A DNA stretch of 62,471 nucleotides, counting the filler. It is 3 parts of 3 records of this genome, joined end to end, with 100 filler letters (N's around TTAATTAATTAA, not from the genome) between each part and the next. Parts side by side here need not be neighbours in the genome. Positions count along the whole stretch, not along the records: positions 28,180 to 47,154 come from SRR31156797_6438; 2 more parts are not named here. One strand, 5' to 3'. Under the pieces are notes generated by a model. The model had not been told where the DNA came from. It made no database searches and saw nothing but the letters and a program-made list of their open reading frames with translations. This document shows, piece by piece, positions 27,456-47,254 of the stretch. A program made the position numbers and the translations under genes. Every line of letters starts with the position of its first letter. Positions within the stretch are counted from its first letter, which is position 1.

Positions 27456-27611
27456 ATGAGCGACCAAAATACCCTAGAGAATGCACCAGAAGAGATCAAA
27501 CTCGCTGTTGATTTGATCTATCTATTGGAATCGAATGAAATTGAGCCTAAGGTTGCATTAGCTGCGCTCGAAATCGTAAAAAACGACCTCGAGCGCAAAC
27601 TTGAAAGTTAA
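27456..27611 (+). CDS. rsmS: RsmS/YbaM (DUF2496) small protein, 51 aa, absent from ORF track
   Basis: Hand translation [51 protein letters not shown]; follows priC. Confidence 0.9.
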
Positions 27612-28079
27612 GAGACTTTAAATTGATCAACTAAGGTCTGCTGTTGTTTAGACAAGGTGCTGATCTCTACCCCTACTGCCTCTGATTCACCCGCTTGTTC
27701 CAATATACGCGCACTCAAATCGCGAATATTAGCCACATTTTGATTCACCTCTGCCGAAACGGTTTGCTGCTCCTCAGCCGCTTTAACAATTTGTGAGTTC
27801 ATGTCACTGATAGCGGAAATAGCTTCGAAAATCTTACCAAGCTCCGTCACAGCTTGGTGAACATGGTCAGCCGTACCGTTCGCTAAGGTATTACCTTGTT
27901 GGATGGCGTCGACAACGTCGCGCGTCCCTTTTTCAACTTTATCGATAACTTCACGAATCTCACCCACAGAGTCTTGCGTTCTGCTCGCTAAGTTACGCAC
28001 TTCATCGGCGACCACTGCAAATCCTCTACCTTGTTCCCCAGCTCGGGCAGCCTCAATCGCTGCATTCAATGCTAACAAG
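27608..28079 (-). CDS. Methyl-accepting chemotaxis protein, C-terminal fragment (5' end lost at the contig break)
   Basis: [28 protein letters not shown]. Confidence 0.95.
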
Positions 28080-28179
28080 NNNNNNNNNNNNNNNNNNNNN
28101 NNNNNNNNNNNNNNNNNNNNNNNTTAATTAATTAANNNNNNNNNNNNNNNNNNNNNNNNNNNNNNNNNNNNNNNNNNNN
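28080..28179. other. Artificial contig-joining spacer
   Basis: 44 N + TTAATTAATTAA (stops in all six frames) + 44 N. Confidence 0.98.
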
Positions 28180-28350
28180 TCTTTTTGTCACATATGATTG
28201 TACAACCTATATATTAGAAAGTTAAACAGGAAATAGTACTTAAAATGCATAAAAAGGCATCTCCTGAACTCATTACAGTCATTACATGAATTTGGAATGT
28301 TGGATGAATGCAATAAATAACACTCAAAAATAAGATATTTTTAGACATAC

Positions 28351-28379
28351 AAAAAGCCCTTAATCATACTGTTAAGGGC
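28351..28379 (-). terminator. Intrinsic terminator after the carboxyltransferase gene
   Basis: GCCCTTAA-8 nt-TTAAGGGC with a minus-strand T5 tail. Confidence 0.8.
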
Positions 28380-28419
28380 ACTGAATAACTAATTTTGAGA
28401 GTTTGAGCCAAAATCGCTC

Positions 28420-29907
28420 TTAAAGAGGAATGTTACCATGTTTCTTATCTGGCATTGTAGTGACCTTTTTATTTCGTAAATTCCATAAGAATGCATACAA
28501 TGTATTTCTCGTTTCTTCAGGTCTAATAACTTCATCTACATAGCCTTCTCTTGCAGCAATTTCAGGAGATAAGAACTTATCATTGTACTGTTTTATTTTT
28601 TCATCTCTAAATTCGTCAATGTTTTTGATATTCCTCATCTGCCTAGCATACAATACATCTACAGCTCCCTGTGCTCCCATAACTGCTATTTCAGCAGTTG
28701 GCCATGCAAATACGAAATCTGCACCTAAGTGTTTGGAACACATTGCTATATATGCACCTCCGTAAGCTTTCCTCAGAAGCAAAGTTATTTTCGGAGTTGT
28801 TGCTCGTGAATAAGCATACAGAACCTTTGCTCCATGACGAATTATACCTTTAGTTTCTTCACTTGTCCCAGGCATATATCCTGGAACATCAACCAGTGTA
28901 ACAATAGGAATATCATATGCATCACAGTAGTTAATGAATCGTGCAATCTTGTCAGATGAGTCGCTATTCATTACGCCGCCCATAACTAAAGGCTGATTAG
29001 CAACTATACCTATATTGACACCAACAAGCTTCGCAAATCCAACTACAGCATTCATAGCAAAATCTTTCTGTACTTCTACAAAAGTATTCTTATCAAATAC
29101 TTCACCTATAATCTCCTTAATATCATAGGCTTTTGAGCTAGAGTCAGGAATAATTCCATTAACTTTGCTTTTACGTTTTAGTGTGTTCTTTTCTCTATTC
29201 TCATATACCTCTTCATCTTTGCTATGTGGTATAACATTAAGTAAGTCCTTTACCTGTCCAAAACACTCTTTCTCATTATTTGAGTAAAAATGTGCTACTC
29301 CGCTTGTTGTGGCGTGCATTTTTGCACCGCCTAATTGCTCTGCAGTTACGTCTTCACGCATAACAGCCTTGATTACCTTTGGTCCTGTAACAAACATTTT
29401 TGATACTTTATCAATTACAAATACAAAATCTGTCAAACCAGGTGAATAAACTGCACCGCCTGCACATGGACCTGCTATAATAGAAATTTGCGGAATGTAT
29501 CCTGATGCTCTGGTGTTTTGATAAAATATATCACCATAGCTTGCTAATGACTTTATGCCTTCCTGTATACGTGCACCACCGGAGTCGTTAATACCAATGC
29601 AAGGACATCTGTTTTCAATACACAGCTCTATCATTCGTGCAATCTTTTTGCCATGAGCATATCCCAGTGAGCCTCCCATAACAGTAAAGTCCTGTGCATA
29701 AATGCCCACTTGCCTTCCGTTAATCAATCCAAACCCTGTTATTACACCGTCATATGGTGTGTTTTTTTCCTGCATATTAAAATCATGACAGTCATGAGTA
29801 ACCTTTGAACCTATTTCCTGAAAGCTGCCTTTATCAGCTAAAGCTACTATTCTCTCATAAGCATGTAATTTCCCTTTATTATGCTGCATTTCATAATTGT
29901 ATTCCAT
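28420..29907 (-). CDS. Acyl-CoA carboxylase/decarboxylase carboxyltransferase subunit (PccB/MmdA-like)
   Basis: QDFTVMGGSLG, DSGGARIQEG, GPCAGGAVYSP, RKAYGGAY, KKHGNIPL. Confidence 0.93.
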   Translation of the reverse strand: MEYNYEMQHNKGKLHAYERIVALADKGSFQEIGSKVTHDCHDFNMQEKNTPYDGVITGFGLINGRQVGIYAQDFTVMGGSLGYAHGKKIARMIELCIENRCPCIGINDSGGARIQEGIKSLASYGDIFYQNTRASGYIPQISIIAGPCAGGAVYSPGLTDFVFVIDKVSKMFVTGPKVIKAVMREDVTAEQLGGAKMHATTSGVAHFYSNNEKECFGQVKDLLNVIPHSKDEEVYENREKNTLKRKSKVNGIIPDSSSKAYDIKEIIGEVFDKNTFVEVQKDFAMNAVVGFAKLVGVNIGIVANQPLVMGGVMNSDSSDKIARFINYCDAYDIPIVTLVDVPGYMPGTSEETKGIIRHGAKVLYAYSRATTPKITLLLRKAYGGAYIAMCSKHLGADFVFAWPTAEIAVMGAQGAVDVLYARQMRNIKNIDEFRDEKIKQYNDKFLSPEIAAREGYVDEVIRPEETRNTLYAFLWNLRNKKVTTMPDKKHGNIPL

Positions 29908-29930
29908 AAATATAACCTCAAATTAAGTTC

Positions 29931-29954
29931 CCTGCACTACATACATAGTGCAGG
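29931..29954 (-). other. Intercistronic hairpin between the ALDH and carboxyltransferase genes
   Basis: CCTGCACTA-CATACA-TAGTGCAGG; no clear U-tract. Confidence 0.6.
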
Positions 29955-29963
29955 ATAAAAATA

Positions 29964-31352
29964 TTAATCATTAATAATATCTCCAAACAATTCTTTATCA
30001 TCTGGAATAATTGGTTCAATTGGATATGAAACCCATGTAGTATTATAATAATGTTTAAGTGTAATATTCTCTGATGATATATTACCTCCCCATGTGCCAC
30101 ATCCAAGTGTCATAGTAAACGGCATTCCATTGCACCAGTCACCACTATTGGCATAGCATTGAGGCTGACGAATAATAACGCGACTGGTCTTTGTTTCTAG
30201 ACTCATCTGCATAATGTGTTCATCATTTACAGAGTGAATTCCACATGAATGTCCGCTGCCCATATGTCCTGTTATTTCATTCACTCTATTAATTGCATTG
30301 TCAAAACCTGAGTATTTATATACAGTAACCACTACTGATAATTTCTCATTTGAAAACAAGTAACCCTCACCAGCGCCGTCCTCTTTAACAATAAAGAAAG
30401 TCTTACCTTCTGGTAATGATATACCCGCCTCATTTGCAATAACTTCTGCAGGCTGCGCTACTATCTTTGCACTTAGTTTGTGCCCGTCTGGCCACATAGC
30501 GTTCATTAGCTTTTGCTTTTCATCAGCTGATACAACATATCCGCCCTCTTCCTGCAGGTTGCTCAATAGTCCTTCATAAATAGTTGCTTCTACAACTAAT
30601 GAGTTTTCTGATGAACAGCTTGTTGCCCAGTCAAAAGTCTTACTCAGCATAATTTTATGTGCAGCATCCTTGATATCAGCTGTTTCGTCTACAACTACAA
30701 CAGCATTACCCATGCCAACGCCATATGCAGGCTTTCCAGATGAGTAAGCTGCTTTTACAAGTGCATTACCACCTGTTGCGATAACCAAATCACTCTGTGC
30801 CATAACCTGACCGCTTATATCAAGTGTAGGTTCCTCAACTGTGATAATTAAGTCTTCTGGTGCACCGTAACGCTTCAATGTTTCACGCATAATATCAACA
30901 ATAAGTTTATTTGTCTTTTTAGTTCTTGGATGCGGTGAAAATATGATTGCATTCTTTGCCTTAATTGCATTCATAGCTTTAATTACAGGTGTAGCCTCCG
31001 GATTTGTACACGGTACTATTGCTCCAATAACTCCAATTGGTTTTGCTATTTTTTTAATACCTTTCGCTGGAATTTCCTCTATTACACCAACTGTCTTTTC
31101 ATCTTTAATATCACGAAGTACTCCACGGACTTTTTTATTAAGCTTACCAAGCTTTGATTCGTAATTTCCTAATCTTGATTCCTCATATGCAAGTTCAGCA
31201 ATCTTTACTGCATTATCCTCTTTTACTGTTTCCCATGCTATTGCTTTTACCAATGTATCAACCTGCTCCTGACTGTAATCTTCTATTGCAAGCTGTGCTT
31301 TTCTTGCTCTTTCCATAAGTGAGCCTACATACTCTGTTGCTGATAAATTCAT
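29964..31352 (-). CDS. CoA-acylating aldehyde dehydrogenase, SauS-like
   Basis: P.TNP, ATGG, GVGMGN, SKTFDWATSCSSENSLVV, EKLS, LGCGTWGGN. Confidence 0.85.
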   Translation of the reverse strand: MNLSATEYVGSLMERARKAQLAIEDYSQEQVDTLVKAIAWETVKEDNAVKIAELAYEESRLGNYESKLGKLNKKVRGVLRDIKDEKTVGVIEEIPAKGIKKIAKPIGVIGAIVPCTNPEATPVIKAMNAIKAKNAIIFSPHPRTKKTNKLIVDIMRETLKRYGAPEDLIITVEEPTLDISGQVMAQSDLVIATGGNALVKAAYSSGKPAYGVGMGNAVVVVDETADIKDAAHKIMLSKTFDWATSCSSENSLVVEATIYEGLLSNLQEEGGYVVSADEKQKLMNAMWPDGHKLSAKIVAQPAEVIANEAGISLPEGKTFFIVKEDGAGEGYLFSNEKLSVVVTVYKYSGFDNAINRVNEITGHMGSGHSCGIHSVNDEHIMQMSLETKTSRVIIRQPQCYANSGDWCNGMPFTMTLGCGTWGGNISSENITLKHYYNTTWVSYPIEPIIPDDKELFGDIIND

Positions 31353-31442
31353 TTAAAATCTCCTTCCTAAATTCATAAATGCTAGAATAATAACTTATTA
31401 TCAATTGTGTTCTGACCTGTGTTTACATGTGTAGTAATTTTT

Positions 31443-31480
31443 TGAACATATTCGGTGAATATGTTCAGTGAATATATTCA
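31443..31480. promoter_or_regulatory. Triple tandem palindromic operator array (TGAATATATTCA consensus x3, 13-bp period)
   Basis: TGAACATATTCG-G-TGAATATGTTCA-G-TGAATATATTCA. Confidence 0.85.
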
Positions 31481-31508
31481 TTGTATTCTTTTTTCATAAT
31501 TTTGTCAA
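31480..31508 (-). promoter_or_regulatory. sigmaA promoter for the ALDH-carboxyltransferase genes
   Basis: TTGACA-17 bp-TACAAT, abutting the operator array. Confidence 0.85.
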
Positions 31509-31537
31509 TATTGGTTTAGTATAATTATTGATTTTGT

Positions 31538-32719
31538 TTATTTGCTTAAATTGTATAGTAGTAATCGATAAGTTAATAAAGCACTAAAAACACATAAAGC
31601 TGCCATTAAATAAACAGCTGTAAATCCTACTTGGTCTGATATTAATCCCCAAAGAAATGCACCTAAGCCAATCCCAATATCAAGAGCTGCATACAGTGTT
31701 CCATTTGCTGCCCCTCGTTTATCACTTGAACTTCGCTTAAATACTATTACGCTTATTATCGGAGTAATCACACCATTACCAAATCCATACATTACTGCAA
31801 CTACTAATAATATTGGTAAACTGTATGTAAAAGCCAGCAATACAAATGAACTTCCGCAAAGAACCATTGCTGGTACTATAGTCTTAGTTACTCCAAACTT
31901 TCTTATTAATTTTCCTATAATAAATCTGGATGTAATGACTGCTAAAGCATATATAGTAAAAAACAATCCAACATTGTCTATCTGTCTTGATGCACCGAAT
32001 ACTGTCATAAACGATATTACGCTTCCATTACTTAACGCTACCAAAAGCATCACTATCGCTGGTTTTATTGCTGTTTTTTCGAAGTAGTCTTTAATTACGA
32101 ACTTATGCTTTTTAGCATTATTTGAAGTGCTGCTTTCTTTTTTATTCTTTTCATAATTGAATGCAAGAACCACAAATAGCTCAATAACATTCATAGCAAG
32201 AGCGAAAAGAAAAAATGTATCAAAGCTATATCTCTCAATAATCACTATTCCCAATGCTGGTCCTATAGCCGTCGCTGCTGCAAGCCCAAGGAAATAAAAT
32301 CCCAGTCCCTCAGGTAATCTGGATTTTGGCAGCACATCTGCGGCTGCTGCTCCATTTGCTGTTGATATAGCACTAAAAGCAAAGCCATTGATTATGCGAA
32401 GAACCAATAGAACTGTAATAGAGAAAGCAAAACTATATAAAGATGACACAGCAATAAATAGGATTACTCCAATCAGTATAACAGTTCTTTTGCCCTTGTT
32501 ATCTGTTATGTGTCCCCACAATGGTCTGGCTATTAGTGCAGCTATAGAATATACTGCTGTAAGTACCCCAGTAATTGAATTACTGCTTCCAATCTCATTA
32601 ACATAAAGTGGAATAATAGTTAAGAGAGTATAATGAGCCATATTGGTAAGGAAATTAATCCCAAGTGCCATTATAAAAAACTTATTCCATAGTTTATCCT
32701 GGTGTGCTTTTAATACCAT
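31538..32719 (-). CDS. MFS transporter
   Basis: About 12 hydrophobic segments, GHITDNKGKR motif A, LRIINGFAF; start moved to MVLKAHQDKLWNK. Confidence 0.92.
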   Translation of the reverse strand: MVLKAHQDKLWNKFFIMALGINFLTNMAHYTLLTIIPLYVNEIGSSNSITGVLTAVYSIAALIARPLWGHITDNKGKRTVILIGVILFIAVSSLYSFAFSITVLLVLRIINGFAFSAISTANGAAAADVLPKSRLPEGLGFYFLGLAAATAIGPALGIVIIERYSFDTFFLFALAMNVIELFVVLAFNYEKNKKESSTSNNAKKHKFVIKDYFEKTAIKPAIVMLLVALSNGSVISFMTVFGASRQIDNVGLFFTIYALAVITSRFIIGKLIRKFGVTKTIVPAMVLCGSSFVLLAFTYSLPILLVVAVMYGFGNGVITPIISVIVFKRSSSDKRGAANGTLYAALDIGIGLGAFLWGLISDQVGFTAVYLMAALCVFSALLTYRLLLYNLSK

Positions 32720-32844
32720 TATATGTCCTTTAATTACTATTAAGCTAATGGGCAACGCCTAATTATTTAAATATGATTAACTTCTGCTAACACAATTTAT
32801 AGCATTGCCCAATAATAATATTTGTTCATGAGTTAAAAATCTAA

Positions 32845-34503
32845 TTACTCTGGCAGCTTACTCAAAGTACGATAATAGCTTCCGCATAAGTTATTTGGGT
32901 TGAATGCTTCACGTACTCTATATTGATAGTATGTAACAAGAGGCTGAGGCATCTTTGAGAACATTGCATCTTGTTCATCCTGAGTATAGTCAAAACCATC
33001 TTCTCTGCGTGCACTTTCGTTCCACTTAGACATATCAACACCAAGCTTCTTCTTATTCATCCACTCCTGAGTAGCATTGAAGAATTCTGCTGTTCCCTTG
33101 ATTGTATCCTTTTGGTATGCATCAAAATGAGTAAAGAATTCCCATCCTGTACTGCCGCCACCGCCCATGATAGTAATAGAACCCATATCAGAGTCACCGC
33201 CAACCTGAGCCATAAAGTCTGTCTTTTCTTCCCATTCCTTTTTAAGTGCTGAAGCTTCCTCCATAACTGAACATGAAGTAAACAAATTACCGGAAAGACC
33301 AAAGTTACCTTCATATGCTCCGCAAAGAGTATAGTTTAGGTTTTTGTGTCCCATTCTTAATAGATACATCAACACCCAGTCCTTAATATCTTCCTGCAGC
33401 ATAAATTCATTCTTCCAGCCGCCTACTTTATCAAGTATTAAATTCAATACTTTTTCCTTGTATTCAGTATCACGTTCTGTCATTCCTGCTATCACTATCT
33501 GAATATCAATTTTCATTTCATCATTAGCCTTCTTTATTTCAGGATCATTTACATACCCTTCAAGGTCAGATAATTGACCATCTGGCTCAGTAAGAATCTT
33601 AATCATAGCTGTCTTAATATCACGTCCAAACATAGTGAACTGTCTGTGACCTAGGTATAATATCTCTGCTTGATGCAGCATATTTACTCCTTCAGCATAT
33701 GCATCCCAACTAGGGAAACATAGTGTATAAGCCTTAAAGTTATCAGGCAAACATGCCTTATATGCTGGTGCGTCACCTCTGCATGGTATATGAGTTGGAC
33801 CCGGCCATGGATGAAGTCTGATTGCTACACGTGTACAGATTCCCATTGAGCCTGCAGTTCCCTGCTTGGCACGAAGAATTGACCTAGTACTAGGTCCCGG
33901 ACCATCACCGCAAAACCAGCCTGAACCTGCTCCCAGCGTACCTGTACGAAGTATTTCACCATTTGGCAGTACCCACTCAGCGGATAGCATATTTTCTGTA
34001 GCTGCTCCCATAAATATAGTCTGTGGACCAAAGCCTACCCAACCAGCTGTAGATGCTGTAACCGAGCTAGAGCATCCAACACCCGGAATATTTAGGTTAA
34101 GTCCCTTTTTCATTGCTTCTGCTTGAACAACAGCACCAATAGCATGGGGCTCTACAACTGCGTACATGTTCTTATCATCTATTTCAATTTTATTCATTCT
34201 ACGCATATCGATTTGAACAGCGTAATTATCTGAAATATAGCCCATTGCTGACCAGAATGTAGTAGAAGCTTTAAACTTAATACCATATTTATTACACAGT
34301 TTTACAATTGCCTGCACCTCATCCGTACTTCCAGGCAAGATTACTGCCTGCGGCAATGGAGTCTTGTGGTCATATGGACCATAATGCGCTGATGACTGAG
34401 GTGCTATGCAACGGTATGTCTCCAAAACACCAGTATCCTGCGATATATTTCTTTCACCAACTACATCTTCAAATGCTTTATAGATTTCTTTTGTTAATGC
34501 CAT
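32845..34503 (-). CDS. FAD-binding oxidoreductase, VAO/PCMH (GlcD-like) family, 552 aa
   Basis: PQAVILPGSTDEVQAIVKLCN, IDMRRMN, EWVLPNGEILRTG, GSMGICT, FNPNN. Confidence 0.85.
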   Translation of the reverse strand: MALTKEIYKAFEDVVGERNISQDTGVLETYRCIAPQSSAHYGPYDHKTPLPQAVILPGSTDEVQAIVKLCNKYGIKFKASTTFWSAMGYISDNYAVQIDMRRMNKIEIDDKNMYAVVEPHAIGAVVQAEAMKKGLNLNIPGVGCSSSVTASTAGWVGFGPQTIFMGAATENMLSAEWVLPNGEILRTGTLGAGSGWFCGDGPGPSTRSILRAKQGTAGSMGICTRVAIRLHPWPGPTHIPCRGDAPAYKACLPDNFKAYTLCFPSWDAYAEGVNMLHQAEILYLGHRQFTMFGRDIKTAMIKILTEPDGQLSDLEGYVNDPEIKKANDEMKIDIQIVIAGMTERDTEYKEKVLNLILDKVGGWKNEFMLQEDIKDWVLMYLLRMGHKNLNYTLCGAYEGNFGLSGNLFTSCSVMEEASALKKEWEEKTDFMAQVGGDSDMGSITIMGGGGSTGWEFFTHFDAYQKDTIKGTAEFFNATQEWMNKKKLGVDMSKWNESARREDGFDYTQDEQDAMFSKMPQPLVTYYQYRVREAFNPNNLCGSYYRTLSKLPE

Positions 34504-34518
34504 AATATCACCACCTTA

Positions 34519-35793
34519 TCAAAGTGCCTGCTGAACAAGATCTATTATGTCCAGCACTTTTATTGTCTTGCCGTTTTCGTCTTTTGTATCAGTGAAGTTG
34601 CTTTCACACCACGGACATGCTGTAACTAAAGCATCGGCCCCTGTTGAGTTAGCTTCAAATATCCTTTCACCTGCTGTCCATTTTGAAAACTCGGGCATTG
34701 TCTCGCTGCATCCGCTTCCCGCTCCGCAGCACCATGAATACTCACGAATACGTTCCATTTCTACCAGTCTTACACCTGGAATAGCGTTCAGAATATTACG
34801 TGGTGCATCATAAATACCATATATTCCATTGAATCTTGGACGTGGTGGATCCCATGTATGGATTTGTTTACGAACTTTTTTCTCTTTGCCTTCCCATGGT
34901 ACATATGGTTCACCCAATCTTCCTAAGTGACATGGGTCATGATATGTTACTGTCATATCTAATTCTTTTGTGAACTTGACTTTACCTTCAGCAATTGCCT
35001 TTTCAATATATTCAACAATATGAAGAACTTCTATATTAAGTCCTAATTTCGCATATTGTCTCTTAAATGCATGATAACAGTCACTACATGGAGTAACTAT
35101 CGTTTTTGCGCCAGTTCTCTTGAATGCATCAATATTAATGCCAGCCTTCTTCTCGTACTCTTTTTGAAAGCCCATCTGGTGAGCCCTGCCTGCACAGCAC
35201 ATCTCTGCTTTACCTAATATAGCTACATCCACACCAATATCCTTTAGCAAATTAACCATATCTCTTGCTTTAGGCATTAGATTCTCATCATAACTGTATT
35301 TACAGCCTGGGAAAAATAATACCTCGGCAGTATCTTTTAAGGCATCCTTTACATCCAAACCATCTGCCCAGCTTGCACGGTCTTTTTTCAGCTTACCAGG
35401 TATCATAGTCTTTTCACTCATTAAGCTGTCAATTATTTCTTTTTGTTTTGGCAGTACTTTACCTTTTCCAATTATATCTGCCTTTAGTGCAATATTATGA
35501 TCTAATGGTTCCAAATTGTATCTTGTTACCTTGCAGGCACTGTCGCATGCGCCGCAGCTTGTACAGGCATGTATTGCTTTTGTAGTCTCATCAGAATATT
35601 CTGCATTACCATCCATTAGGGTTTGTGCTAATTGAAATCTGCCTCTTGCAGAATAAGTATTAAAATTGTAATAACCAATACTTGGGCAGTTTTCAGCAAA
35701 GCGTTGACTCTTTATCTTATCAAATGGAATCCATTTACATGAAGAGCAGTTGCTGCATCTCTCCATCATAGGACGGAAATCTTTTAATGACAT
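34519..35793 (-). CDS. Fe-S/CCG-domain electron-transfer subunit (GlcF/HdrD-like)
   Basis: CSNCSSC...CP and CTSCGACDSAC ferredoxin motifs; two CCG domains (CCAG..PCSDC; YHDPCHLGR..CCGAG..ACPWC). Confidence 0.92.
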   Translation of the reverse strand: MSLKDFRPMMERCSNCSSCKWIPFDKIKSQRFAENCPSIGYYNFNTYSARGRFQLAQTLMDGNAEYSDETTKAIHACTSCGACDSACKVTRYNLEPLDHNIALKADIIGKGKVLPKQKEIIDSLMSEKTMIPGKLKKDRASWADGLDVKDALKDTAEVLFFPGCKYSYDENLMPKARDMVNLLKDIGVDVAILGKAEMCCAGRAHQMGFQKEYEKKAGINIDAFKRTGAKTIVTPCSDCYHAFKRQYAKLGLNIEVLHIVEYIEKAIAEGKVKFTKELDMTVTYHDPCHLGRLGEPYVPWEGKEKKVRKQIHTWDPPRPRFNGIYGIYDAPRNILNAIPGVRLVEMERIREYSWCCGAGSGCSETMPEFSKWTAGERIFEANSTGADALVTACPWCESNFTDTKDENGKTIKVLDIIDLVQQAL

Positions 35794-35810
35794 ACTATTT
35801 TCCTCCTTCG

Positions 35811-37280
35811 TTAATTGTTGCTTAGTTTGCCGGGGTTCATAATCCGATTCGGATTGAAAATATCCCTTAGTTCTTCTAGTACTTTATATGACTCTGCATC
35901 TCTGTTAAGCTGTAGTTTTGACCAGATTCCATACGGACGGAAGTAATATGCTCCCATGTTCAGGAACTCTAGGCTGGCCTTTTCATATAAGGCAGCAACT
36001 TTTACTTTTTCTAATTTGCATTCAGAATTATATGGCAGAGTAAATGAACAGTGATATGAAGTTCCCATATTTTCAGGCTGCAGATAAACACCAACGTCTC
36101 TGGTGTAAACTGATTCTTTTGACATTTTTTCCATTGCTGTTATGAATTTTGGAGTCTGGTCCAAAGTAGTTGCAAAGAAAATATCCTGATGACTGCCTGC
36201 TGCTATGTCCTTCCAGCTTTGCTCTGCGCATGTTGACAAAGCTCGCTCTAGTACATTTTCACCCGATACTTTACCTATAGCTAATACAAAATCTAAGCCA
36301 TAAGATTGAGTAATTTCTTCGATATCTTTCTCTTGAGCTGATACTCTTTCTTCTGGTAAAAACTCTCTGCCGGTAATACCAATTACGGCTGTCCAAGGAG
36401 GAAGTTCCTTTACCAGTTTCTCTTTCTCTTCAGCACTGTCAGCCATCAAACCTGCCAGCTGTGCACCGTTCATAATGAAGAATTCTTCACTAAAGCGCAA
36501 CTTTATAACTTCATATGCAAAATCAATCAAGTTTTCCAATTTAGTTGCAGGTACTAAATATCCCTTATGTGCCTGCGGCATAGTCTCACATCTTATGGAT
36601 GCCCATGTTACTATACCCATACTTCCCTGTGCACCGGTAAGGATTCGATAGAAGTCAAGCATCATAGGACCTGCAGGTTCCCATTGCCATTTGTCTTCTT
36701 TCCACTGTTCTTCTAAGTTCATAACAGAACCAGCAGCTTCACCCGTATACATGCGATTACCATCACCCCATGTTACCTCAACGCAGCGCAATGGATCTAG
36801 ATTACACCATTGATGCAGTGAATTAAGTCTTGGTTCAGTTTCAAGTACACTTGTTACTACAGACTTACCTGCTCTGGGTCTAATAGGCATAGAAACTGTC
36901 ATACCTTCCTTTGCTAAAGCTTCATTTAGCTCATCATATGTAACCCCTGGCTCAATAACTGCCATTCTGTGCCTTTTGTTTATACCTAGTATTTTCTTCA
37001 TACCAGATAAGTCTACAATTACAGCTTGTGGTACAGACGGAACAGTATCCCCCTTATAATGCGGTGCTTGAGAACTAATTGGTACTAATGGTGTGTTTGT
37101 TTCATTAGCCCATCTTACAAGTTCTTCAACCTGATTGGCGTTTTTTACTTTTACTACATAATTGGGAGAAATTGACGGTGATATGCTTCTATCTTTTGAA
37201 TATGCTTCTAAGACTAAAGATTCATCACTGACATTTTCTTTGCCAACAATGGCAATTAAAGCATTCTTTATGTCGTTCAT
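35811..37280 (-). CDS. FAD-binding oxidoreductase, VAO/PCMH family, 489 aa
   Basis: LVPISS..PH, VIVDLSGMKKI, IEPGVT, GAQGSMGIVTW, FNPNRIMNPGKL. Confidence 0.88.
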   Translation of the reverse strand: MNDIKNALIAIVGKENVSDESLVLEAYSKDRSISPSISPNYVVKVKNANQVEELVRWANETNTPLVPISSQAPHYKGDTVPSVPQAVIVDLSGMKKILGINKRHRMAVIEPGVTYDELNEALAKEGMTVSMPIRPRAGKSVVTSVLETEPRLNSLHQWCNLDPLRCVEVTWGDGNRMYTGEAAGSVMNLEEQWKEDKWQWEPAGPMMLDFYRILTGAQGSMGIVTWASIRCETMPQAHKGYLVPATKLENLIDFAYEVIKLRFSEEFFIMNGAQLAGLMADSAEEKEKLVKELPPWTAVIGITGREFLPEERVSAQEKDIEEITQSYGLDFVLAIGKVSGENVLERALSTCAEQSWKDIAAGSHQDIFFATTLDQTPKFITAMEKMSKESVYTRDVGVYLQPENMGTSYHCSFTLPYNSECKLEKVKVAALYEKASLEFLNMGAYYFRPYGIWSKLQLNRDAESYKVLEELRDIFNPNRIMNPGKLSNN

Positions 37281-37325
37281 TTCTTATCCTCCTTCTAGCT
37301 TTAGTTTACTACAATTCAATAATCA

Positions 37326-37363
37326 TGAATATATTCGTTGAATATATTCACTGAATATATTCA
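37326..37363. promoter_or_regulatory. Triple tandem palindromic operator array (13-bp period)
   Basis: TGAATATATTCG-T-TGAATATATTCA-C-TGAATATATTCA. Confidence 0.88.
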
Positions 37364-37391
37364 TAATAGTCCTTTTTCACTTACACGTCAA
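37363..37391 (-). promoter_or_regulatory. sigmaA promoter for the FAD/Fe-S/FAD/MFS operon
   Basis: TTGACG-17 bp-TATTAT, abutting the operator array. Confidence 0.8.
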
Positions 37392-37418
37392 GAGATTTTT
37401 TAGCATTTATATTACAAA

Positions 37419-37473
37419 TGAATTAGGTTCAGTGAATTAATTCATTGACAATGAGATTTTTTTTTGTAATAAT
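37419..37473 (+). promoter_or_regulatory. tetR promoter with two degenerate operator copies
   Basis: TGAATTAGGTTCA-G-TGAATTAATTCA directly before TTGACA-17 bp-AATAAT (extended TG). Confidence 0.65.
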
Positions 37474-37514
37474 ATTGTTCAGTAATGAGAAATTAAATTA
37501 ACGGAGTAGTTACA

Positions 37515-38099
37515 ATGAGTACGATGACAAGCAGACAAAAACAAGCTGTACAAACCAAAAAGAAAATTTTCAACGCCGCTGTGTATTTAATGCAAAAGCA
37601 CGGCATTGAGGATACGACTATAGAACAAATATGCAAGCATGCTGAAGTATCTGTAGGTTCATTCTACAATTATTACAAATCAAAAGATGACGTAATAGTT
37701 GTTGCTTTCGAATCTGCTGACCAATACTTCAAAGACATTGTTGTGGAAGAAATTAAAAAGCTGGATGTAAAGGATAAAATAATCACATTCTTTCTTCACT
37801 ATGCTAAATACAATAACCAACAGGGATTGCCATTCGTAAAAAACCTGTACAGCAACAGTGAGCAAAAACTATTTATTGCAAGAAATAGGTATATGCATCA
37901 ATTACTGAGGGATATAATAACTGAGGGTCACAATAGCGGAAAACTAAAAAATGAAATGAGCGCTGCAGAAATAGAAAATTTTTTGTTTATAGTAGCGAGA
38001 GGTGTAATCAATGACTGGTGCTTATATGATGGTGAGTATGATTTAGAGAAAAAGTTAGAATCATATATTAGCATGATTATCGGTATATATGTAAAGTAA
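37515..38099 (+). CDS. TetR/AcrR-family transcriptional regulator
   Basis: TKKKIFNAA..L, TTIEQICKHAEVSVGSFYNYYKSKDD HTH. Confidence 0.95.
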   Translation: MSTMTSRQKQAVQTKKKIFNAAVYLMQKHGIEDTTIEQICKHAEVSVGSFYNYYKSKDDVIVVAFESADQYFKDIVVEEIKKLDVKDKIITFFLHYAKYNNQQGLPFVKNLYSNSEQKLFIARNRYMHQLLRDIITEGHNSGKLKNEMSAAEIENFLFIVARGVINDWCLYDGEYDLEKKLESYISMIIGIYVK

Positions 38100-38144
38100 T
38101 TCAGCAGAATATGCTGAATTGAAGGGCAGCTTCTACCTGCCCTT
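38098..38144. terminator. Two hairpins between the convergent tetR and MBL genes
   Basis: AATTCAGCA..TGCTGAATT and AAGGGCAG..CTGCCCTT. Confidence 0.6.
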
Positions 38145-39034
38145 TATTCATCAAATCTCTCTGCAATGCTATTTGCTTCTCTTTCCTTAAACGACTCATA
38201 TCTTTCCATATATTCATCTAAAGCTATGCCCCATCTATCCTTATCAATAAACAGGCTTTCCATAGAGCCTTCATAATTTTCAACCTTTTGAATTATACCA
38301 TTAGGTCGAGGGTGGGTATCCAGCATAATATCTGCTTTTTCACTTTTTAGCTTTTTAATAGACTCAATATATTCTTCTCTTGCTTTTAGGTCAATATTAT
38401 ACTTTAGCAGTCTGCCAGTGTGCAGAGTAACAAAGCCTCCTATACCACAAATACCCGCAGTCAATTCCCTCTCACCATCACTTACATTGAATATAAAGCT
38501 CATTGAACCTGCAGAGTGTCCAGGGTTATAAATGCAGCGTACTCGAGTATTGCCTAATTCTATTATGTCCCCGTCATCCAGCTCTACATCTGGTATAAAA
38601 AACTTAGCATCTGGAACACCCGATGATTGAATTTCCGTATGTTCTGGATTTTCTCTAAAAACTTGAGCAGCATATTTATTAATAAATGTCTTACAATTAT
38701 TTTCTTTCTGCAAGTCATAAGTAGCACCAAAATGATCATAATGCTCGTGAGTATGGACAATATATCTAATGTCCTTTAATTGAAATCCTAGTTTCTTTAT
38801 ATTCTCCATATATTGATATTTCACATGAGGAAACCCAGTATCAAATAATATCAGTCCTTTACCAGTATCTACTAAGTGCAGACAGATAACTTTGTCTCCA
38901 ATATAATATAAATTACCGAATATCTTAAACGGTTCCAAGTATTTAGTCATATAGTCATTTAAATATGACTGACCTCTTTTATTATAAGACTTTTCTAATT
39001 CGTCCCACTGTTGTATCGCTTTGTCTCTATCCAT
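38144..39034 (-). CDS. MBL-fold metallo-hydrolase, subclass-B3-like, no signal peptide
   Basis: PFKIFGNLYYIG, LFDTG, HEHYDH, PGHSAG, DTHP. Confidence 0.88.
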   Translation of the reverse strand: MDRDKAIQQWDELEKSYNKRGQSYLNDYMTKYLEPFKIFGNLYYIGDKVICLHLVDTGKGLILFDTGFPHVKYQYMENIKKLGFQLKDIRYIVHTHEHYDHFGATYDLQKENNCKTFINKYAAQVFRENPEHTEIQSSGVPDAKFFIPDVELDDGDIIELGNTRVRCIYNPGHSAGSMSFIFNVSDGERELTAGICGIGGFVTLHTGRLLKYNIDLKAREEYIESIKKLKSEKADIMLDTHPRPNGIIQKVENYEGSMESLFIDKDRWGIALDEYMERYESFKEREANSIAERFDE

Positions 39035-39172
39035 ACTTCCTCCTTTGTGTAATACACATAGCTATAAACAGCCATGCTACAAATAATCGCCAATGTATGT
39101 CTAGTCATTAGATTCCAAGTGAATCATTGACTAGCCACACTTTCACTTTTTTATAATAGAAGCTCTTTGTAT

Positions 39173-39201
39173 ATTATATTAATAATAGCACTCTTTTACA
39201 A
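39173..39201 (-). promoter_or_regulatory. sigmaA promoter for the MBL gene
   Basis: TTGTAA-17 bp-TATAAT. Confidence 0.65.
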
Positions 39202-39284
39202 ATCTTAAGTAATAAATATATATTCCCTATGTTTACAGCTATTGTGCAAACTTAGAGAATATATTTTTATATTATACTAATTTA

Positions 39285-40433
39285 TCATATATCCCTTACT
39301 GAACCATCAAATGCTGTATTTGCAAAGAATACTTGTCGTGAATCCACAGGAGGAAACTTCTCCTCGATATCTGGTATAAGCTCTATTCCTATACCTGGAG
39401 CATCTGGTATCTGTATACATCCATCTGATACAATAAATGGCTCAACCATCATTTTACTCTCATTACCCTTGTCATAGAACGATGGGAATTCCTGAATAGC
39501 AAAATTCGGTATACATGCATCCAGCTGTAAGCAGGCAGCAGTGCTGACTGGACCTAAAGGATTGTGAGGTACTACTCCAACATAGTGTGCTTCAGCTATG
39601 CTTGCTACCTTTTTCGCAGCTGTTAAGCCTCCCAGCAAACATACATCAGGACGAATATAACGTACACCATTTCTTGTCAATAAGAATTCAAACTCCTGTA
39701 TGTTAAAGAATCGCTCACCTGTGGCAAATGGCACAGATGTCTTGCTGGACACATCTGCCAGCACTTGATAATTATCAGGGGGTATAGGATCTTCAATAAA
39801 CATAGGGTGATACTTTGCAATCCCCTCTGCAAAAGTTACAGCTTCTGCAGGATTCATACTACGGTGTACTTCAACGCATAAATCGAACTTCTCACCTACT
39901 GCCTCTCTGCACATACGGACTTTTTCAATGGCTAACTCTACCCTATTGCTGTAGATACTCTCTTCCAAATCCAAAGGAACATCGTTCATTGGTCCTGTCA
40001 GCATTAAGCGAGCTGCAGTAAAGCCCTCATCTTTAATCCTTTTACATCCTTCAGCCATTTTTTCAGCAGTAAATTCAAACACCGGTGCATAGCTTCTTAC
40101 TTTATTACGGCATTTACCACCTAACAATTCATATACTGGCGCATCTAGGGCTTTGCCCTTAATATCCCACAAAGCTATATCTATTGCAGATATTGCACTC
40201 ATTATTACAGCACCTCTAAAATATGTACTTCTGTACATCATCTGCCATAAGTGTTCTATTTTAAACGGATCTTTTCCAATGATACCGGTTTTTAATTTGT
40301 TTATAGCGCCGATTGTAGCTTCCAAAAAACTCCACGCTCCAGTCTCACCGATACCAGTGATTCCGACATCAGTTTCAACTTTGACAAACAGATATTTTCC
40401 AGCTCTAATCAATTTAATATCTTTTATTTTCAT
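39285..40433 (-). CDS. Mandelate racemase/muconate lactonizing family acid-sugar dehydratase (DgoD-like)
   Basis: SAIDIALWDIKGK...PVYELLGG, VEVHR, FIEDP, ATGER, PHNP, PGIGIE. Confidence 0.88.
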   Translation of the reverse strand: MKIKDIKLIRAGKYLFVKVETDVGITGIGETGAWSFLEATIGAINKLKTGIIGKDPFKIEHLWQMMYRSTYFRGAVIMSAISAIDIALWDIKGKALDAPVYELLGGKCRNKVRSYAPVFEFTAEKMAEGCKRIKDEGFTAARLMLTGPMNDVPLDLEESIYSNRVELAIEKVRMCREAVGEKFDLCVEVHRSMNPAEAVTFAEGIAKYHPMFIEDPIPPDNYQVLADVSSKTSVPFATGERFFNIQEFEFLLTRNGVRYIRPDVCLLGGLTAAKKVASIAEAHYVGVVPHNPLGPVSTAACLQLDACIPNFAIQEFPSFYDKGNESKMMVEPFIVSDGCIQIPDAPGIGIELIPDIEEKFPPVDSRQVFFANTAFDGSVRDI

Positions 40434-40473
40434 ATATTATACGGCGTTAAGCCTTCCTCATTTCCAGAATCAA

Positions 40474-41979
40474 TTATTTCTCAGACTTTGCTTTCTCAGC
40501 TTTGTGCCTATCTCGTACTGGCTTTAGGAATGCACGTACTATAGATATTACTGCAATTAATAGTAATATAGCTGACACAGGTCTTGTTAAGAATGTTAAA
40601 AATCCATTATCAGAATAGGTTAGTCCACGCCTTAAATACGTCTCAAGTCTGCCTGACAGAATATATGCAAGCACAAGTGGTGTAATTGGGAACTTGCCCC
40701 ACGAAAGGAAGAATCCTAATAGTCCGCACGCTACAACCATACCCACATTAAATATTGAATATGAATCTGAATACGCTCCCACAAAGCACAAGAGCATAAT
40801 TACTGGAAATAGATACATAAACTTAATCTTTAATATTTTCGGGAATAATCTCATTCCAAAAAACTGTACAAATAATGTCATTATTGCTGCGAATATTAAC
40901 GCACCAAACATTACATATGCAAAGTTTGGATTATTAACCATCAGCAATGGCCCTGGTTCTAATCCCTGAATAGTTAAAGCACCCAGAAGCAATGCAGTTG
41001 TGGAGTCACCGGGTATGCCTAATGCTGTCATGGGTATAACAGCTCCGCCAATCGTAGCATTATTTGCAGTTTCGGTAGCAAACAACCCCTCAATAGAACC
41101 CTTGCCGTATTCCTCTGGATGTTTTGATGAACTCTTTGCTGTTGCATAAGCAACGAAACTAGATATACCAGAACCCATGCCAGGCAGGAATCCTATTCCT
41201 AAGCCAATAAAAAATGATCTAACAATATTAATTGCATTTGATGCAAGCTCTTTTATAGTTACACCCAATCCCTTTATCTTTTGATTAGTAACTTTGGGTA
41301 AAGTAATATTTTTCTTACCATAATCAACTAATATCTGCCTTACTGCAAAAAATCCCATCATAGTTGCACTTAGTGATAGTCCGCCTCTCAAATTCATAAT
41401 ACCAAAAGTGAATCTGAATGTACCGCAAACTGGAGCTATTCCAATCGCACCAATTATAAATCCAATAAAAGCTGATGCAAGACCTTTTATAACATCACCT
41501 TCTGATAGTGATACTATCAATGAAATTGCCAGCAAACATAATCCAAAGAATTCCCAAGGACCGAGTTTAACAGCTAAATCAGCAATTACAGGGCTTAAAA
41601 ACAAAGCTATGATACAACTAAAAAATGTACCAATAAATGATGCAATAATTCCAACGCCAAGTGCTTTTGTGGTCTTTCCTTGTTTAGAAAGCGGCCACGC
41701 TTCAAATGTAGTTGCTATAGCTGCCGGGGCGCCTGGAATTCCAATTATCGTAGATGCTATAAATCCACCTGAAATACCGCCTATATATATACTCACTAGC
41801 AAAATTATAGCTGGTTCTGCATCCATAAAAAATGTGAATGGCATTAACAGAACTATTGCAAGTGCTCCTGTCAATCCTGGAATTGAGCCGAAAATAATAC
41901 CAAGCGTTACGCCTGTGAATATAAGAAGCAAACTCGTCGGCTCAATGAGTACGCTTAATACATATTGTAAATATTCCAT
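40474..41979 (-). CDS. tctA: Tripartite tricarboxylate transporter large permease TctA
   Basis: GSIPGL, IGIPGAP, ETANNA, LGIPGD, FLTRPVS. Confidence 0.93.
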   Translation of the reverse strand: MEYLQYVLSVLIEPTSLLLIFTGVTLGIIFGSIPGLTGALAIVLLMPFTFFMDAEPAIILLVSIYIGGISGGFIASTIIGIPGAPAAIATTFEAWPLSKQGKTTKALGVGIIASFIGTFFSCIIALFLSPVIADLAVKLGPWEFFGLCLLAISLIVSLSEGDVIKGLASAFIGFIIGAIGIAPVCGTFRFTFGIMNLRGGLSLSATMMGFFAVRQILVDYGKKNITLPKVTNQKIKGLGVTIKELASNAINIVRSFFIGLGIGFLPGMGSGISSFVAYATAKSSSKHPEEYGKGSIEGLFATETANNATIGGAVIPMTALGIPGDSTTALLLGALTIQGLEPGPLLMVNNPNFAYVMFGALIFAAIMTLFVQFFGMRLFPKILKIKFMYLFPVIMLLCFVGAYSDSYSIFNVGMVVACGLLGFFLSWGKFPITPLVLAYILSGRLETYLRRGLTYSDNGFLTFLTRPVSAILLLIAVISIVRAFLKPVRDRHKAEKAKSEK

Positions 41980-41983
41980 ATTC

Positions 41984-42460
41984 TCACCCTAAATCCTTCA
42001 ACCAGTCAAACAACATACCATTTGGAAGCTTGATTTTCAATACATACTGGAAAATAACGTATATGATAGCTGTCAAAACAACTGCATAAATGATTTTCTT
42101 AGTAAGTGTTGACTGCTTTTCAATGTCAAACATCCAAACCATTCCAAATAGAAGTATAATAGCAGCAATAACAAATCCAGCATAATTCAATAAAAATGGA
42201 AATGCTATTATTAAAAGAGCCATTTTTAACACTCTGATCCATCCAGCTTTCGTCAAAAACTTTTCTTCTTCTCTTCTTGCTCTAATTAATTGACCTATTC
42301 CACACAATACTAAACCTATACTAGCAATATACGGAAACAAATCCGGACCTACTGTATCCTTAAAAAACTTGGGTTCTGGTATTTGACTTGTTAAAAATAT
42401 GAAAATCAATCCTGTAGCAATTAGGATAATTCCAATTGTTCTATCTTTAGATAACTTCAT
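41984..42460 (-). CDS. tctB: TTT small permease TctB
   Basis: Four TMs, VGPDLFP, IFQYVLKIKLP.G. Confidence 0.88.
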   Translation of the reverse strand: MKLSKDRTIGIILIATGLIFIFLTSQIPEPKFFKDTVGPDLFPYIASIGLVLCGIGQLIRARREEEKFLTKAGWIRVLKMALLIIAFPFLLNYAGFVIAAIILLFGMVWMFDIEKQSTLTKKIIYAVVLTAIIYVIFQYVLKIKLPNGMLFDWLKDLG

Positions 42461-42483
42461 ATCCTGTCCTTTCATAAATAGAA

Positions 42484-42521
42484 ATTACCGTGTTCTATAT
42501 CTTATCAATGAACACGGTAAT
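42484..42521 (-). other. Intercistronic hairpin after tctC (mRNA stabiliser or attenuator)
   Basis: Perfect 12-bp IR ATTACCGTGTTC...GAACACGGTAAT. Confidence 0.7.
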
Positions 42522-42530
42522 AATATAATA

Positions 42531-43583: not shown

Positions 43584-43855
43584 TTTTTATCTTCTCCTTC
43601 TTATAGATTAAATTACAGCATCTTTTTAACTGTAAAATATTATTCTTCTTCACTAATAATTTAATGGCTGCTGTATAAACAATACATACAGTCAAAACGA
43701 ATTTCAATATTTAGTTTTGCTTAACAAATAAACTTTGTATTGACTTTTCTTTTATAAATATATTATAATTTTACTACTTGATAAAGTAAAGTTAATTAAT
43801 TTTAAGATTTCTTTAACATTCTCTAATGCTAAATTAATGTAAAGTGAGATTTAAT

Positions 43856-44767: not shown

Positions 44768-45261
44768 ATAGTATCCATTACTCTCAAATCTTGTTATCGG
44801 TTTATACCTAGTAATATATGCATATATTTAAATAAAATAATTAAAGTTAATCTAGATAGTTCGGAGTAATTTTTCTTTTACTATGTAATTACGAATTTTT
44901 TACCATATTTTTCACTTTTAAGAGGTACAATACTAGCTTAAATTCTTCCTGTGTTATATAAAATAGAAGCTACCATACGCCCATCTACAGTTCCATTCAT
45001 AAACATTTTCGTAAAATCAAGAAGCTCCTGCGAATTAATTACTTTTTAAAATTACTTCATATTCATATTTTTAATCTATTTTTATTAGTAAAATCGATAA
45101 TATCCCTTGTATAGCTGTTTAAGACTTTAAGCTGAGATTACTGGAGAAAGAGAGTAAATATGAAATTTCTCATCGAAATAGCTCTCAACTTAATAATTTT
45201 GTAATATTGTTATGGTAGTATATTGCATTACAAGCTCAAAAAACCATATAAGGAAAAGACT

Positions 45262-47154: not shown

Positions 47155-47254
47155 NNNNNNNNNNNNNNNNNNNNNNNNNNNNNNNNNNNNNNNNNNNNTT
47201 AATTAATTAANNNNNNNNNNNNNNNNNNNNNNNNNNNNNNNNNNNNNNNNNNNN
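47155..47254. other. Artificial contig-joining spacer
   Basis: 44 N + TTAATTAATTAA + 44 N. Confidence 0.98.

Follow-up and report, generated by a model that had tools for sequence, protein, structure and literature searches.

In Escherichia coli, glycolate is oxidized to glyoxylate by GlcDEF, a complex of two FAD_binding_4 flavoproteins and a soluble iron-sulfur (Fe-S) protein with a ferredoxin-like and two CCG domains, which converts a CH2OH group beside a carboxylate into an aldehyde-acid. 3-Hydroxyisobutyrate and 3-hydroxypropionate are degraded via their semialdehydes to propionyl-CoA and acetyl-CoA by the MmsB/MmsA, IolA and DddA/DddC routes. There, the first step is carried out by a 3-hydroxyisobutyrate dehydrogenase that depends on NAD (HIBADH) or a glucose-methanol-choline (GMC) flavoprotein, and the semialdehyde is taken by a CoA-acylating, oxidative and decarboxylating (methyl)malonate-semialdehyde dehydrogenase (MMSDH, model TIGR01722). 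Here we describe a gene cluster within a stretch of 62,471 nt of DNA, filler included (the window), which consists of three parts placed end to end; the cluster lies in the part at 28180-47154, SRR31156797_6438. It encodes a flavoprotein, an Fe-S protein and a second flavoprotein (FAD1-FeS-FAD2, the triad), a transporter, an acylating aldehyde dehydrogenase (ALDH) and a carboxyltransferase (CT), divergent from a gene for a TetR-family repressor. We read it, tentatively and with somewhat less than an even chance of being right, as a catabolic regulon, repressed by TetR, with which a strictly anaerobic, Bacillota-like bacterium degrades a small 3-hydroxy acid, likeliest 3-hydroxypropionate or 3-hydroxyisobutyrate. 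The proposed chemistry and order of steps resemble the MmsB/MmsA, IolA and DddA/DddC routes, and the triad reaction would be the next homologue of the glycolate reaction of GlcDEF. In contrast to the former routes, the window has a flavin/Fe-S complex in place of HIBADH or the GMC flavoprotein, and an AdhE/SucD-type acylating ALDH with a separate CT instead of MMSDH.

A first-pass annotation of the sequence had described six co-oriented genes divergent from tetR. Open reading frames (ORFs) were found at exactly these positions, and the gene identities were borne out by Pfam and NCBIfam matches of all seven proteins. FAD1 (35811-37280, minus strand, 489 aa) and FAD2 (32845-34503, minus strand, 552 aa) are flavoprotein subunits of the vanillyl-alcohol oxidase (VAO)/p-cresol methylhydroxylase (PCMH) superfamily, with a partial (60.9 bits) and a full-domain (70.3 bits) match to FAD_binding_4, respectively. 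Between them, separated by 17 nt from FAD1 and 15 nt from FAD2, lies the gene of the Fe-S subunit of HdrD/GlcF/TfrB type (34519-35793, minus strand, 424 aa; CCG 104.4 bits over two stretches, Fer4_8 31.7 bits). It is followed beyond FAD2 by a transporter of the major facilitator superfamily (MFS; 31538-32755, minus strand, 405 aa; MFS_1 184.1 bits), presumed to serve substrate uptake. A gap of 185 nt precedes the gene of the CoA-acylating ALDH of SauS/SucD/AdhE-N type (29964-31352, minus strand, 462 aa; Aldedh, SauS 540.2 bits), and the CT of PccB/MmdA/12S type comes last (28420-29907, minus strand, 495 aa; Carboxyl_trans 571.9 bits, full length). The repressor gene (37515-38099, plus strand, 194 aa) matched TetR_N with 45.6 bits and TetR_C_4 with 30.9 bits. 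The terminator expected to close the cluster was located as well, as an intrinsic terminator-like hairpin with a T-run at the end of the ALDH-CT unit (28356-28379, minus strand; -13.5 kcal/mol, z = -2.55).

The evidence for the product of the triad comes from its neighbours in other genomes. We scanned species-representative genomes with the Fe-S protein and obtained 49 triad loci, the ORFs of which were clustered and the clusters labelled by Pfam and NCBIfam. The order FAD1-FeS-FAD2 was kept in 43 loci; five were cut by contig ends and one archaeal locus had the Fe-S gene only. According to the records, the hosts belong to the Clostridia (Anaerovoracaceae, Limiplasma, Anoxynatronum), the Dehalococcoidales, the Spirochaetes and others, and those named are anaerobes. 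Fifteen classical ALDHs were found at these loci. Ten of them exceeded the TIGR01722 cut-off (492-557 bits vs 448.5), and these MMSDHs were encoded no more than two genes after FAD2 (nine loci) or directly before FAD1 (one locus). The remaining five were not MMSDHs and lay farther off. The window itself has no MMSDH. In the 32 loci where 1.5 kb or more is available past FAD2, the next gene encoded an MMSDH in eight and a SauS-like ALDH in one, and any other family occurred there at most twice. The closest relatives by FAD2 identity (L001, 72%; L046 and L070, 71% each) all have an ALDH of one of these two types adjoining the triad. The next ones (L002, L006, L042) end less than 450 bp past FAD2, and L017 and L018 (69%) have room downstream and no ALDH.

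SauS-like ALDHs beside the triad were observed in two Limiplasma genomes (L008 and L045), in Acetivibrionales (L044/L060, directly after FAD2) and in a member of the Treponemataceae (L070). A CT immediately follows this ALDH in L008 and L045 (70% identity). L070 has one as well (49%); there, the triad, the ALDH and the CT, which adjoins acetate kinase, stand loosely together. In both Limiplasma genomes, DctP-DctQ-DctM-ALDH-CT forms one operon that is divergent from the triad, with tandem 13-bp-phased operators between the two. The first-pass annotation had recommended a neighbourhood analysis and held that triads never found with ALDH or CT genes would speak against its pathway; co-occurrence was seen in L008, L045, L044/L060 and L070.

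A second line of evidence was obtained with the ALDH. A scan with this protein gave 47 loci, in 39 of which the family ALDH was identified by clustering. In five of these 39 (L051, L067, L068, L071 and L081), a complete iol operon (IolC, J, D, E, G, B) has the ALDH gene as its last, in the normal position of IolA. TIGR01722 had no match above its cut-off in any of the five genomes searched, four with such iol operons and Limiplasma. The AdhE/SucD/SauS-type ALDH in clostridial and Tissierellia iol operons looks, from gene position and content, like an undescribed non-orthologous replacement of IolA. Both lines, the MMSDH neighbours and the ALDH in IolA position, point to malonate or methylmalonate semialdehyde as the probable product of the triad. 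The first-pass annotation had proposed a route of import, alcohol oxidation to the aldehyde, acyl-CoA formation and (de)carboxylation, and had named 3-hydroxypropionate and 3-hydroxyisobutyrate as example substrates. That two unrelated ALDH types linked to malonate semialdehyde stand beside the triad in different lineages is our main ground for accepting this pathway; it gains further support from the conservation of TetR and operator at triad loci.

The control region was analyzed by motif search. A 12-bp palindrome, TGAATATATTCA, occurs three times at 13-bp spacing at 31443-31480 and again at 37326-37363. The predicted promoter of FAD1-FeS-FAD2-MFS (37326-37391, minus strand) has a -35 box TTGACG (37391-37386), a 17-nt gap and a -10 box TATTAT (37368-37363), and its three operators lie at 37363-37352, 37350-37339 and 37337-37326 (minus strand). 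The predicted ALDH-CT promoter (31443-31508, minus strand) is built in the same manner, with TTGACA (31508-31503), 17 nt, TACAAT (31485-31480) and operators at 31480-31469, 31467-31456 and 31454-31443 (minus strand). In both promoters, the last base of the predicted -10 box is the first base of the operator array. The arrays had been called identical; they are indeed shared by both units, but the two cassettes are only near-identical, since their alignment, from the -35 box to the third operator, has 85% identity over 54 nt. A seventh operator, TGAATTAATTCA (37433-37444, plus strand), adjoins the -35 box of the predicted tetR promoter (37433-37473, plus strand; TTGACA 37445-37450, AATAAT 37468-37473), and this single site suggests autoregulation. 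Allowing up to two mismatches, the operator motif was found 19 times in the window vs 4.86 expected, and none of 100 shuffles reached 19. The TetR_N helix-turn-helix and the palindromic sites at the predicted regulated promoters agree with a TetR-family repressor. Taken together, the arrays, promoters and terminator make two transcription units under one repressor a sound prediction, and co-induction of both units is predicted. The 56 nt that separate ALDH from CT contain a very stable 10-bp hairpin (29930-29955, minus strand; -17.7 kcal/mol, z = -4.29) that lacks a proper T-tail. None of 200 shuffles was as stable, and the hairpin may be a processing or stabilizing element that sets the ALDH:CT ratio. 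The 19-kb contig was also compared with Rfam and had zero matches at E <= 0.1, so neither a riboswitch nor a leader was found.

The regulatory elements recur at other triad loci. TetR homologues with 31-49% identity are present in 21 of the 49. Of 45 regions upstream of FAD1, 19 contain the core motif TGAAnnnnTTCA, and no dehalococcoid region is among these 19. The motif has a density of 1.02 per kb upstream of FAD1, compared with 0.10 per kb across all locus DNA. Tandem operator copies at 13-bp spacing were also seen in Limiplasma and L044. This recurrence indicates a conserved unit of repressor, operator and triad that is old. ALDH-CT in the window appears to have come under the repressor of the triad through a second cassette copy.

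The CT contains a complete Carboxyl_trans domain (PF01039, 571.9 bits; residues 8-493 align to positions 2-493 of a profile of 493). With the mmdA model TIGR01117 it scored 665.1 bits, under the cut-off of 998.8; residues 6-495 correspond to model positions 23-512, leaving about 22 N-terminal model residues unmatched. Best matches in the PDB (phmmer) were Thermotoga maritima PccB (1vrg, 576 bits) and the 12S subunit of transcarboxylase (1on3, 502 bits). A full-length Carboxyl_trans protein is what the window has in common with MmdABCD, the beta subunit of propionyl-CoA carboxylase and transcarboxylase 12S. Unlike these systems, it scores below the mmdA cut-off and is encoded on a contig that has no genes for a biotin carrier, pump or biotin carboxylase. 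In Limiplasma, genes for OAD_beta pump subunits and for a biotin carrier were found elsewhere in both genomes, one OAD_beta beside the carrier and its own distant CT, and a shared biotin carrier is possible for the window CT. The residue after the GGAY motif is Ile; this position is presumably the switch between acetyl-CoA and propionyl-CoA preference in Streptomyces enzymes, and we draw no conclusion from it. We also scanned for the CT and kept 80 of 552 loci. In two of these with annotated neighbours (L175, L135) the CT stands alone among unrelated genes, and as it is mostly solitary elsewhere, the CT subfamily adds no clue.

Concerning transport, TRAP (tripartite ATP-independent periplasmic) systems were found at 13 of the 49 triad loci and MFS proteins at eight; MFS homologues with 39-40% identity stand beside the triad in L013 and L026. 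TRAP systems import carboxylates. The presence of a TRAP importer in one operon with ALDH-CT in Limiplasma argues for uptake and for the catabolic direction.

Based on these observations, the pathway would run as follows. The acid would be taken up by the MFS protein (by the TRAP importer in Limiplasma). The GlcDEF-like FAD1-FeS-FAD2 complex would oxidize the acid at its terminal CH2OH, with malonate or methylmalonate semialdehyde as the resulting aldehyde, and the electrons would pass from flavin to two 4Fe-4S clusters, to the CCG domains and to a further acceptor. With CoA and NAD(P)+, the ALDH would convert the semialdehyde to malonyl-CoA or methylmalonyl-CoA. The CT would then pass the free carboxyl group on to a biotin carrier whose gene lies elsewhere, leaving acetyl-CoA or propionyl-CoA, and decarboxylation could then drive a sodium pump or transcarboxylation. 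In most relatives, a single MMSDH of MmsA/IolA type would perform the last two steps, and the energy of decarboxylation would be lost. Without inducer, TetR dimers would occupy the three phased operators just past each -10 box and the one at their own promoter. The scheme starts from what was observed, namely gene content, operators, the geometry of the promoters and conserved neighbourhoods; from these we infer that the triad forms a complex, which way the flow runs, and what serve as substrate, acceptor, biotin partner and inducer.

Several observations weigh against this 3-hydroxy acid pathway. Neither ALDH type is next after FAD2 in 23 of the 32 loci with room, and SauS-like ALDHs beside the triad are a minority pattern, seen in three of the 49 loci plus L070. 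A metagenome scan with FAD2 gave 27 loci, mostly of 30-40% identity, in which no ALDH or CT stood beside the triad at the thresholds used. The CT adjoins an ALDH in only two of the 80 CT loci, both from Limiplasma, and the absence of biotin-related genes from the 19-kb contig counts here too. The iol-linked and aminotransferase-linked ALDHs have no adjoining CT, which means that the ALDH may not release malonyl-CoA. The best NCBIfam matches of the MFS protein are exporter-type families, all below cut-off, and by sequence it appears as exporter-like as importer-like. NAD-dependent dehydrogenases suffice for 3-hydroxyacids elsewhere, and the need for a flavin/Fe-S complex is unexplained given these enzymes. 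The remaining adverse points concern the triad proteins themselves and the possibility of an aromatic substrate.

FAD1 and FAD2 are paralogous over their full length (hhalign 99.1%, 20% identity), and judged by sequence and modelled fold they appear as near to 4-phenol oxidases as to D-2-hydroxyacid dehydrogenases. The family profile of FAD1 matched vanillyl-alcohol dehydrogenase/oxidase (E 2.6e-24) and mouse D-lactate dehydrogenase (mLDHD, E 2e-20) in the PDB. For both flavoproteins, the VAO, eugenol oxidase (EUGO) and PCMH enzymes and D-lactate dehydrogenase matched about equally in the FAD domain, and the cap domains were not alignable in the PDB profile searches. An AlphaFold2 model of FAD2 (pLDDT 77.7) was compared by Foldseek, giving mLDHD with E 2e-22 (TMq 0.61) and EUGO/PCMH/VAO with about 1e-19, at a TM of about 0.6 for all. 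As a test of class the fold comparison failed, as Foldseek did not separate LDHD-like from VAO-like proteins.

It is worth considering, although we regard it as unlikely, that the triad is a cytochrome-free anaerobic counterpart of VAO/PCMH whose substrate is a phenolic alcohol, a 4-alkylphenol or the side chain of an aromatic acid; phenolic substrates had been listed in the first-pass annotation, too. In that case an aromatic or aryl-substituted CoA ester would be made by the ALDH, and the CT would act on an aryl-substituted malonyl-CoA or related ester. The best sequence matches of both flavoproteins, enzymes for vanillyl alcohol, eugenol, 4-ethylphenol and p-cresol, agree with this, as do the fold scores, which are about equal for the VAO group and mLDHD. 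These matches are, however, confined to the FAD-binding domain. In 4-ethylphenol oxidase (7pbg), a conserved GY(G)G contains the Tyr to which a Tyr of FAD2 aligns and which we take to be the first phenolate-binding Tyr of 4-phenol oxidases; FAD1 has Lys where FAD2 has its Tyr. For the other Tyr of the phenolate site and for its Arg, no reliable alignment was obtained, the C-terminal Tyr-Arg stretch scoring just 9.2 bits. PCMH, VAO and EUGO also differ from the window in that the cluster has no cytochrome c subunit, encoding a CCG Fe-S subunit and no cytochrome gene, in that their cap could not be aligned by sequence, and in the partner genes, which point to an aliphatic semialdehyde.

Neighbouring genes speak on both sides of the aromatic question. 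Six Dehalococcoidales loci (L029-L032, L037, L039) share a larger cluster of TRAP, URO-D-like (uroporphyrinogen decarboxylase-like), UbiD, chagasin-like I42, triad and MMSDH genes, together with genes for a 146-aa unknown protein, UbiX, an AhtL-like molybdoenzyme, a PcaD-like hydrolase and an iron-containing alcohol dehydrogenase. The UbiD, UbiX, URO-D-like and AhtL-like genes suggest aromatic metabolism, as does the PcaD-like gene in the phenolic reading, and the substrate of this cluster is possibly aromatic. A protein search with FAD2 gave 2458 matches at E <= 0.001 among 8000 candidates scored, including a homologue in Holophaga foetida, a degrader of methoxylated aromatics. The PDB entries nearest to the Limiplasma DctP are presumably aromatic-acid binders, but 4NAP binds a D-amino acid (PMC10443332). 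On the other side, the in-operon partner at ten loci is the TIGR01722 MMSDH and not a benzaldehyde-type enzyme; the only MdlD-like ALDH, in L007, is below cut-off and distant, lying upstream of FAD1 at about 5.5 kb with three intervening genes. Furthermore, the window ALDH family stands in for IolA in iol operons.

Less probable still is that the triad is a GlcDEF/LDHD-like D-2-hydroxyacid dehydrogenase forming a 2-oxo acid from lactate, glycolate, 2-hydroxyglutarate or an aromatic 2-hydroxy acid, with ALDH-CT as a separate module that shares only the repressor. The subunit architecture is that of GlcDEF, mLDHD is the top Foldseek match (E 2e-22, TMq 0.61), FAD1 aligns to mLDHD over its full length (residues 3-486), and the sources annotate the homologues only as 'glycolate oxidase' or 'FAD-binding oxidoreductase'. 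The Fe-S subunit has 19 Cys, with CxxCxxCxxxC at residue 77, CCG at residue 355 and one CCA variant, and is predicted to hold two 4Fe-4S motifs and two CCG domains. However, the models for GlcD, GlcF and YdiJ stayed far below their cut-offs: GlcD (TIGR00387) gave 43.6 and 43.3 bits with the flavoproteins against 567.9, and GlcF (NF008434) 43 bits against 333, while TfrB reached 160.9 of 385 bits. FAD-oxidase_C (PF02913) was undetected in FAD1 and FAD2, PF01565 being the sole match at E <= 0.001. The triad also differs from GlcDEF in its long flavoproteins (489 and 552 aa, compared with about 350 aa for GlcE), in the order flavoprotein-FeS-flavoprotein and in its strictly anaerobic hosts; by its predicted composition it is GlcDEF-like in build and outside the GlcDEF family. 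A 2-oxo product would, moreover, leave the two types of semialdehyde dehydrogenase found in its operons across several phyla unexplained.

The ALDH was examined in the same way. Its best NCBIfam match is SauS (NF047625), so the first-pass label of a SauS-type ALDH holds as far as the closest family is concerned, but with 540.2 bits it falls short of the cut-off of 600. The best PDB match was the acetylating succinate-semialdehyde dehydrogenase 8cei (SucD, 346 bits over residues 9-457). A full-length match and a catalytic cysteine, Cys246 within ATSCSSENS, place the protein in the AdhE-N/EutE/SucD type; this residue is presumably the equivalent of AdhE Cys246. SauS and SucD belong to the same subfamily, with the catalytic Cys kept and short anionic-tailed aldehydes as substrates; the window ALDH differs from SauS by its score below cut-off and by genomic contexts pointing to malonate semialdehyde. 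Other relatives are encoded beside class-III aminotransferases (seven loci) and split transketolases (four loci), contexts known from sulfoquinovose and taurine pathways. Together with the SauS match, these contexts are what speaks for a sulfonate pathway, in which isethionate or a related hydroxy-sulfonate is oxidized to sulfoacetaldehyde, a true SauS makes sulfoacetyl-CoA and the CT takes it as a look-alike of malonyl-CoA. We consider this very improbable. A quick maximum-likelihood tree placed the window ALDH together with the triad-linked ALDHs of Limiplasma (SH-aLRT 92). This group lies within a clade of nine rows, with an iol-linked ALDH among them, and the transketolase-linked ALDHs, presumed to be of the sulfoacetaldehyde type, fall in a more distant clade. 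In addition, the MMSDH of the sister loci requires a beta-carboxyl group, and the contig has no sulfite exporter, desulfonating enzyme or phosphotransacetylase.

Finally, a reversed flow, in which acetyl-CoA is carboxylated, malonyl-CoA is reduced by ALDH and triad to 3-hydroxypropionate and the MFS protein exports this as an electron sink, is barely credible: the MFS protein matches efflux families best and SucD-type ALDHs are, we presume, reductive in some clostridia, but TRAP importers replace the MFS protein at 13 of the 49 loci and share the ALDH-CT operon in Limiplasma, the MMSDHs of the sister loci are oxidative and decarboxylating, and the contig has no biotin carboxylase.

Further arrangements were noted at the triad loci. 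In the dehalococcoid L040 (3016-8013), three tandem FAD2 paralogues follow one FAD1-FeS pair, and the clostridial L009 (3133-12933) has two full triads in tandem with a TetR gene between; both arrangements suggest substrate diversification within the triad family. In Limiplasma (L008 and L045, 14764-20070), the triad and its two TetR genes are directly followed by genes of aromatic amino-acid biosynthesis, which may be coincidence: 3-deoxy-D-arabino-heptulosonate 7-phosphate (DAHP) synthase, prephenate dehydrogenase, 3-dehydroquinate (DHQ) synthase, 5-enolpyruvylshikimate 3-phosphate (EPSP) synthase and chorismate synthase.

The make-up of the window should be kept in mind when its other genes are read. 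Linkers of the form N44-TTAATTAATTAA-N44, read from the sequence at 28080-28179 and 47155-47254 (no strand applies), indicate that the window is three concatenated contigs. The middle one (28180-47154, about 19 kb, GC about 0.36) bears the whole cluster and stops 240 bp past the CT gene, the linker at 28080-28179 being its real end. The flanking contigs have a GC of 0.41-0.46 (left) and 0.48-0.53 (right), and if the assembly or bin is mixed, the three may stem from different organisms. On the left contig, DinG and PriC genes were taken as gammaproteobacterial from Pfam and NCBIfam matches. A methyl-accepting chemotaxis protein (MCP) fragment with the signalling domain only (156 aa, 27608-28078, minus strand) runs into the contig end and is therefore truncated by the assembly rather than a small gene. 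A search of sequencing runs returned one DNA run sharing 0.76 of the words of the stretch, and no RNA runs were listed.

On the middle contig, a metallo-beta-lactamase (MBL)-fold protein (38144-39034, minus strand) is convergent with tetR and scored 168 bits with the subclass B3 metallo-beta-lactamase model (cut-off 240); it had no homology, at the thresholds used, to the Vmh-like MBL genes near the triads of L020 and L022. The region 39285-44767 is a second catabolic unit with an enolase-superfamily acid-sugar dehydratase (galactonate dehydratase model, 311.2 bits vs a cut-off of 311), TctA, TctB, TctC and a divergent LysR regulator. The contig end severs a large protein of surface type at 45223-47154 (plus strand), in which beta-helix repeats and the domains Flg_new_2 and Big_2 were recognized.

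The gene set had been called undescribed, and a full-text literature search, whose coverage excludes most subscription-journal papers, likewise gave no description of the triad or of the whole set. The chemistry itself is already known from MmsB/MmsA, IolA and DddA/DddC; new are the first-step enzymes and the split last step, in combination. That the triads form a widespread class of anaerobic 3-hydroxyacid:acceptor oxidoreductases, GlcDEF-like but moved on by one carbon, and that MMSDH has been split, here and in Limiplasma, into ALDH and CT with a shared biotin carrier and sodium pump, is possible and in our view rather doubtful. The locus and its relatives give a two-flavoprotein/CCG Fe-S family, common in anaerobes, a concrete candidate product in (methyl)malonate semialdehyde, and the pair of repressor and operator offers a handle for finding the inducer. 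The AdhE/SucD-type ALDH that replaces IolA in clostridial inositol operons is of interest in its own right. 3-Hydroxypropionate and 3-hydroxyisobutyrate arise from dimethylsulfoniopropionate, acrylate, uracil, beta-alanine, valine and polyesters. If our reading is true, the cluster would provide an oxygen-free route for these acids and a natural swap of MMSDH for an energy-conserving two-step version; with the split route, a fermenter would gain an ion gradient from decarboxylation on top of substrate-level ATP.

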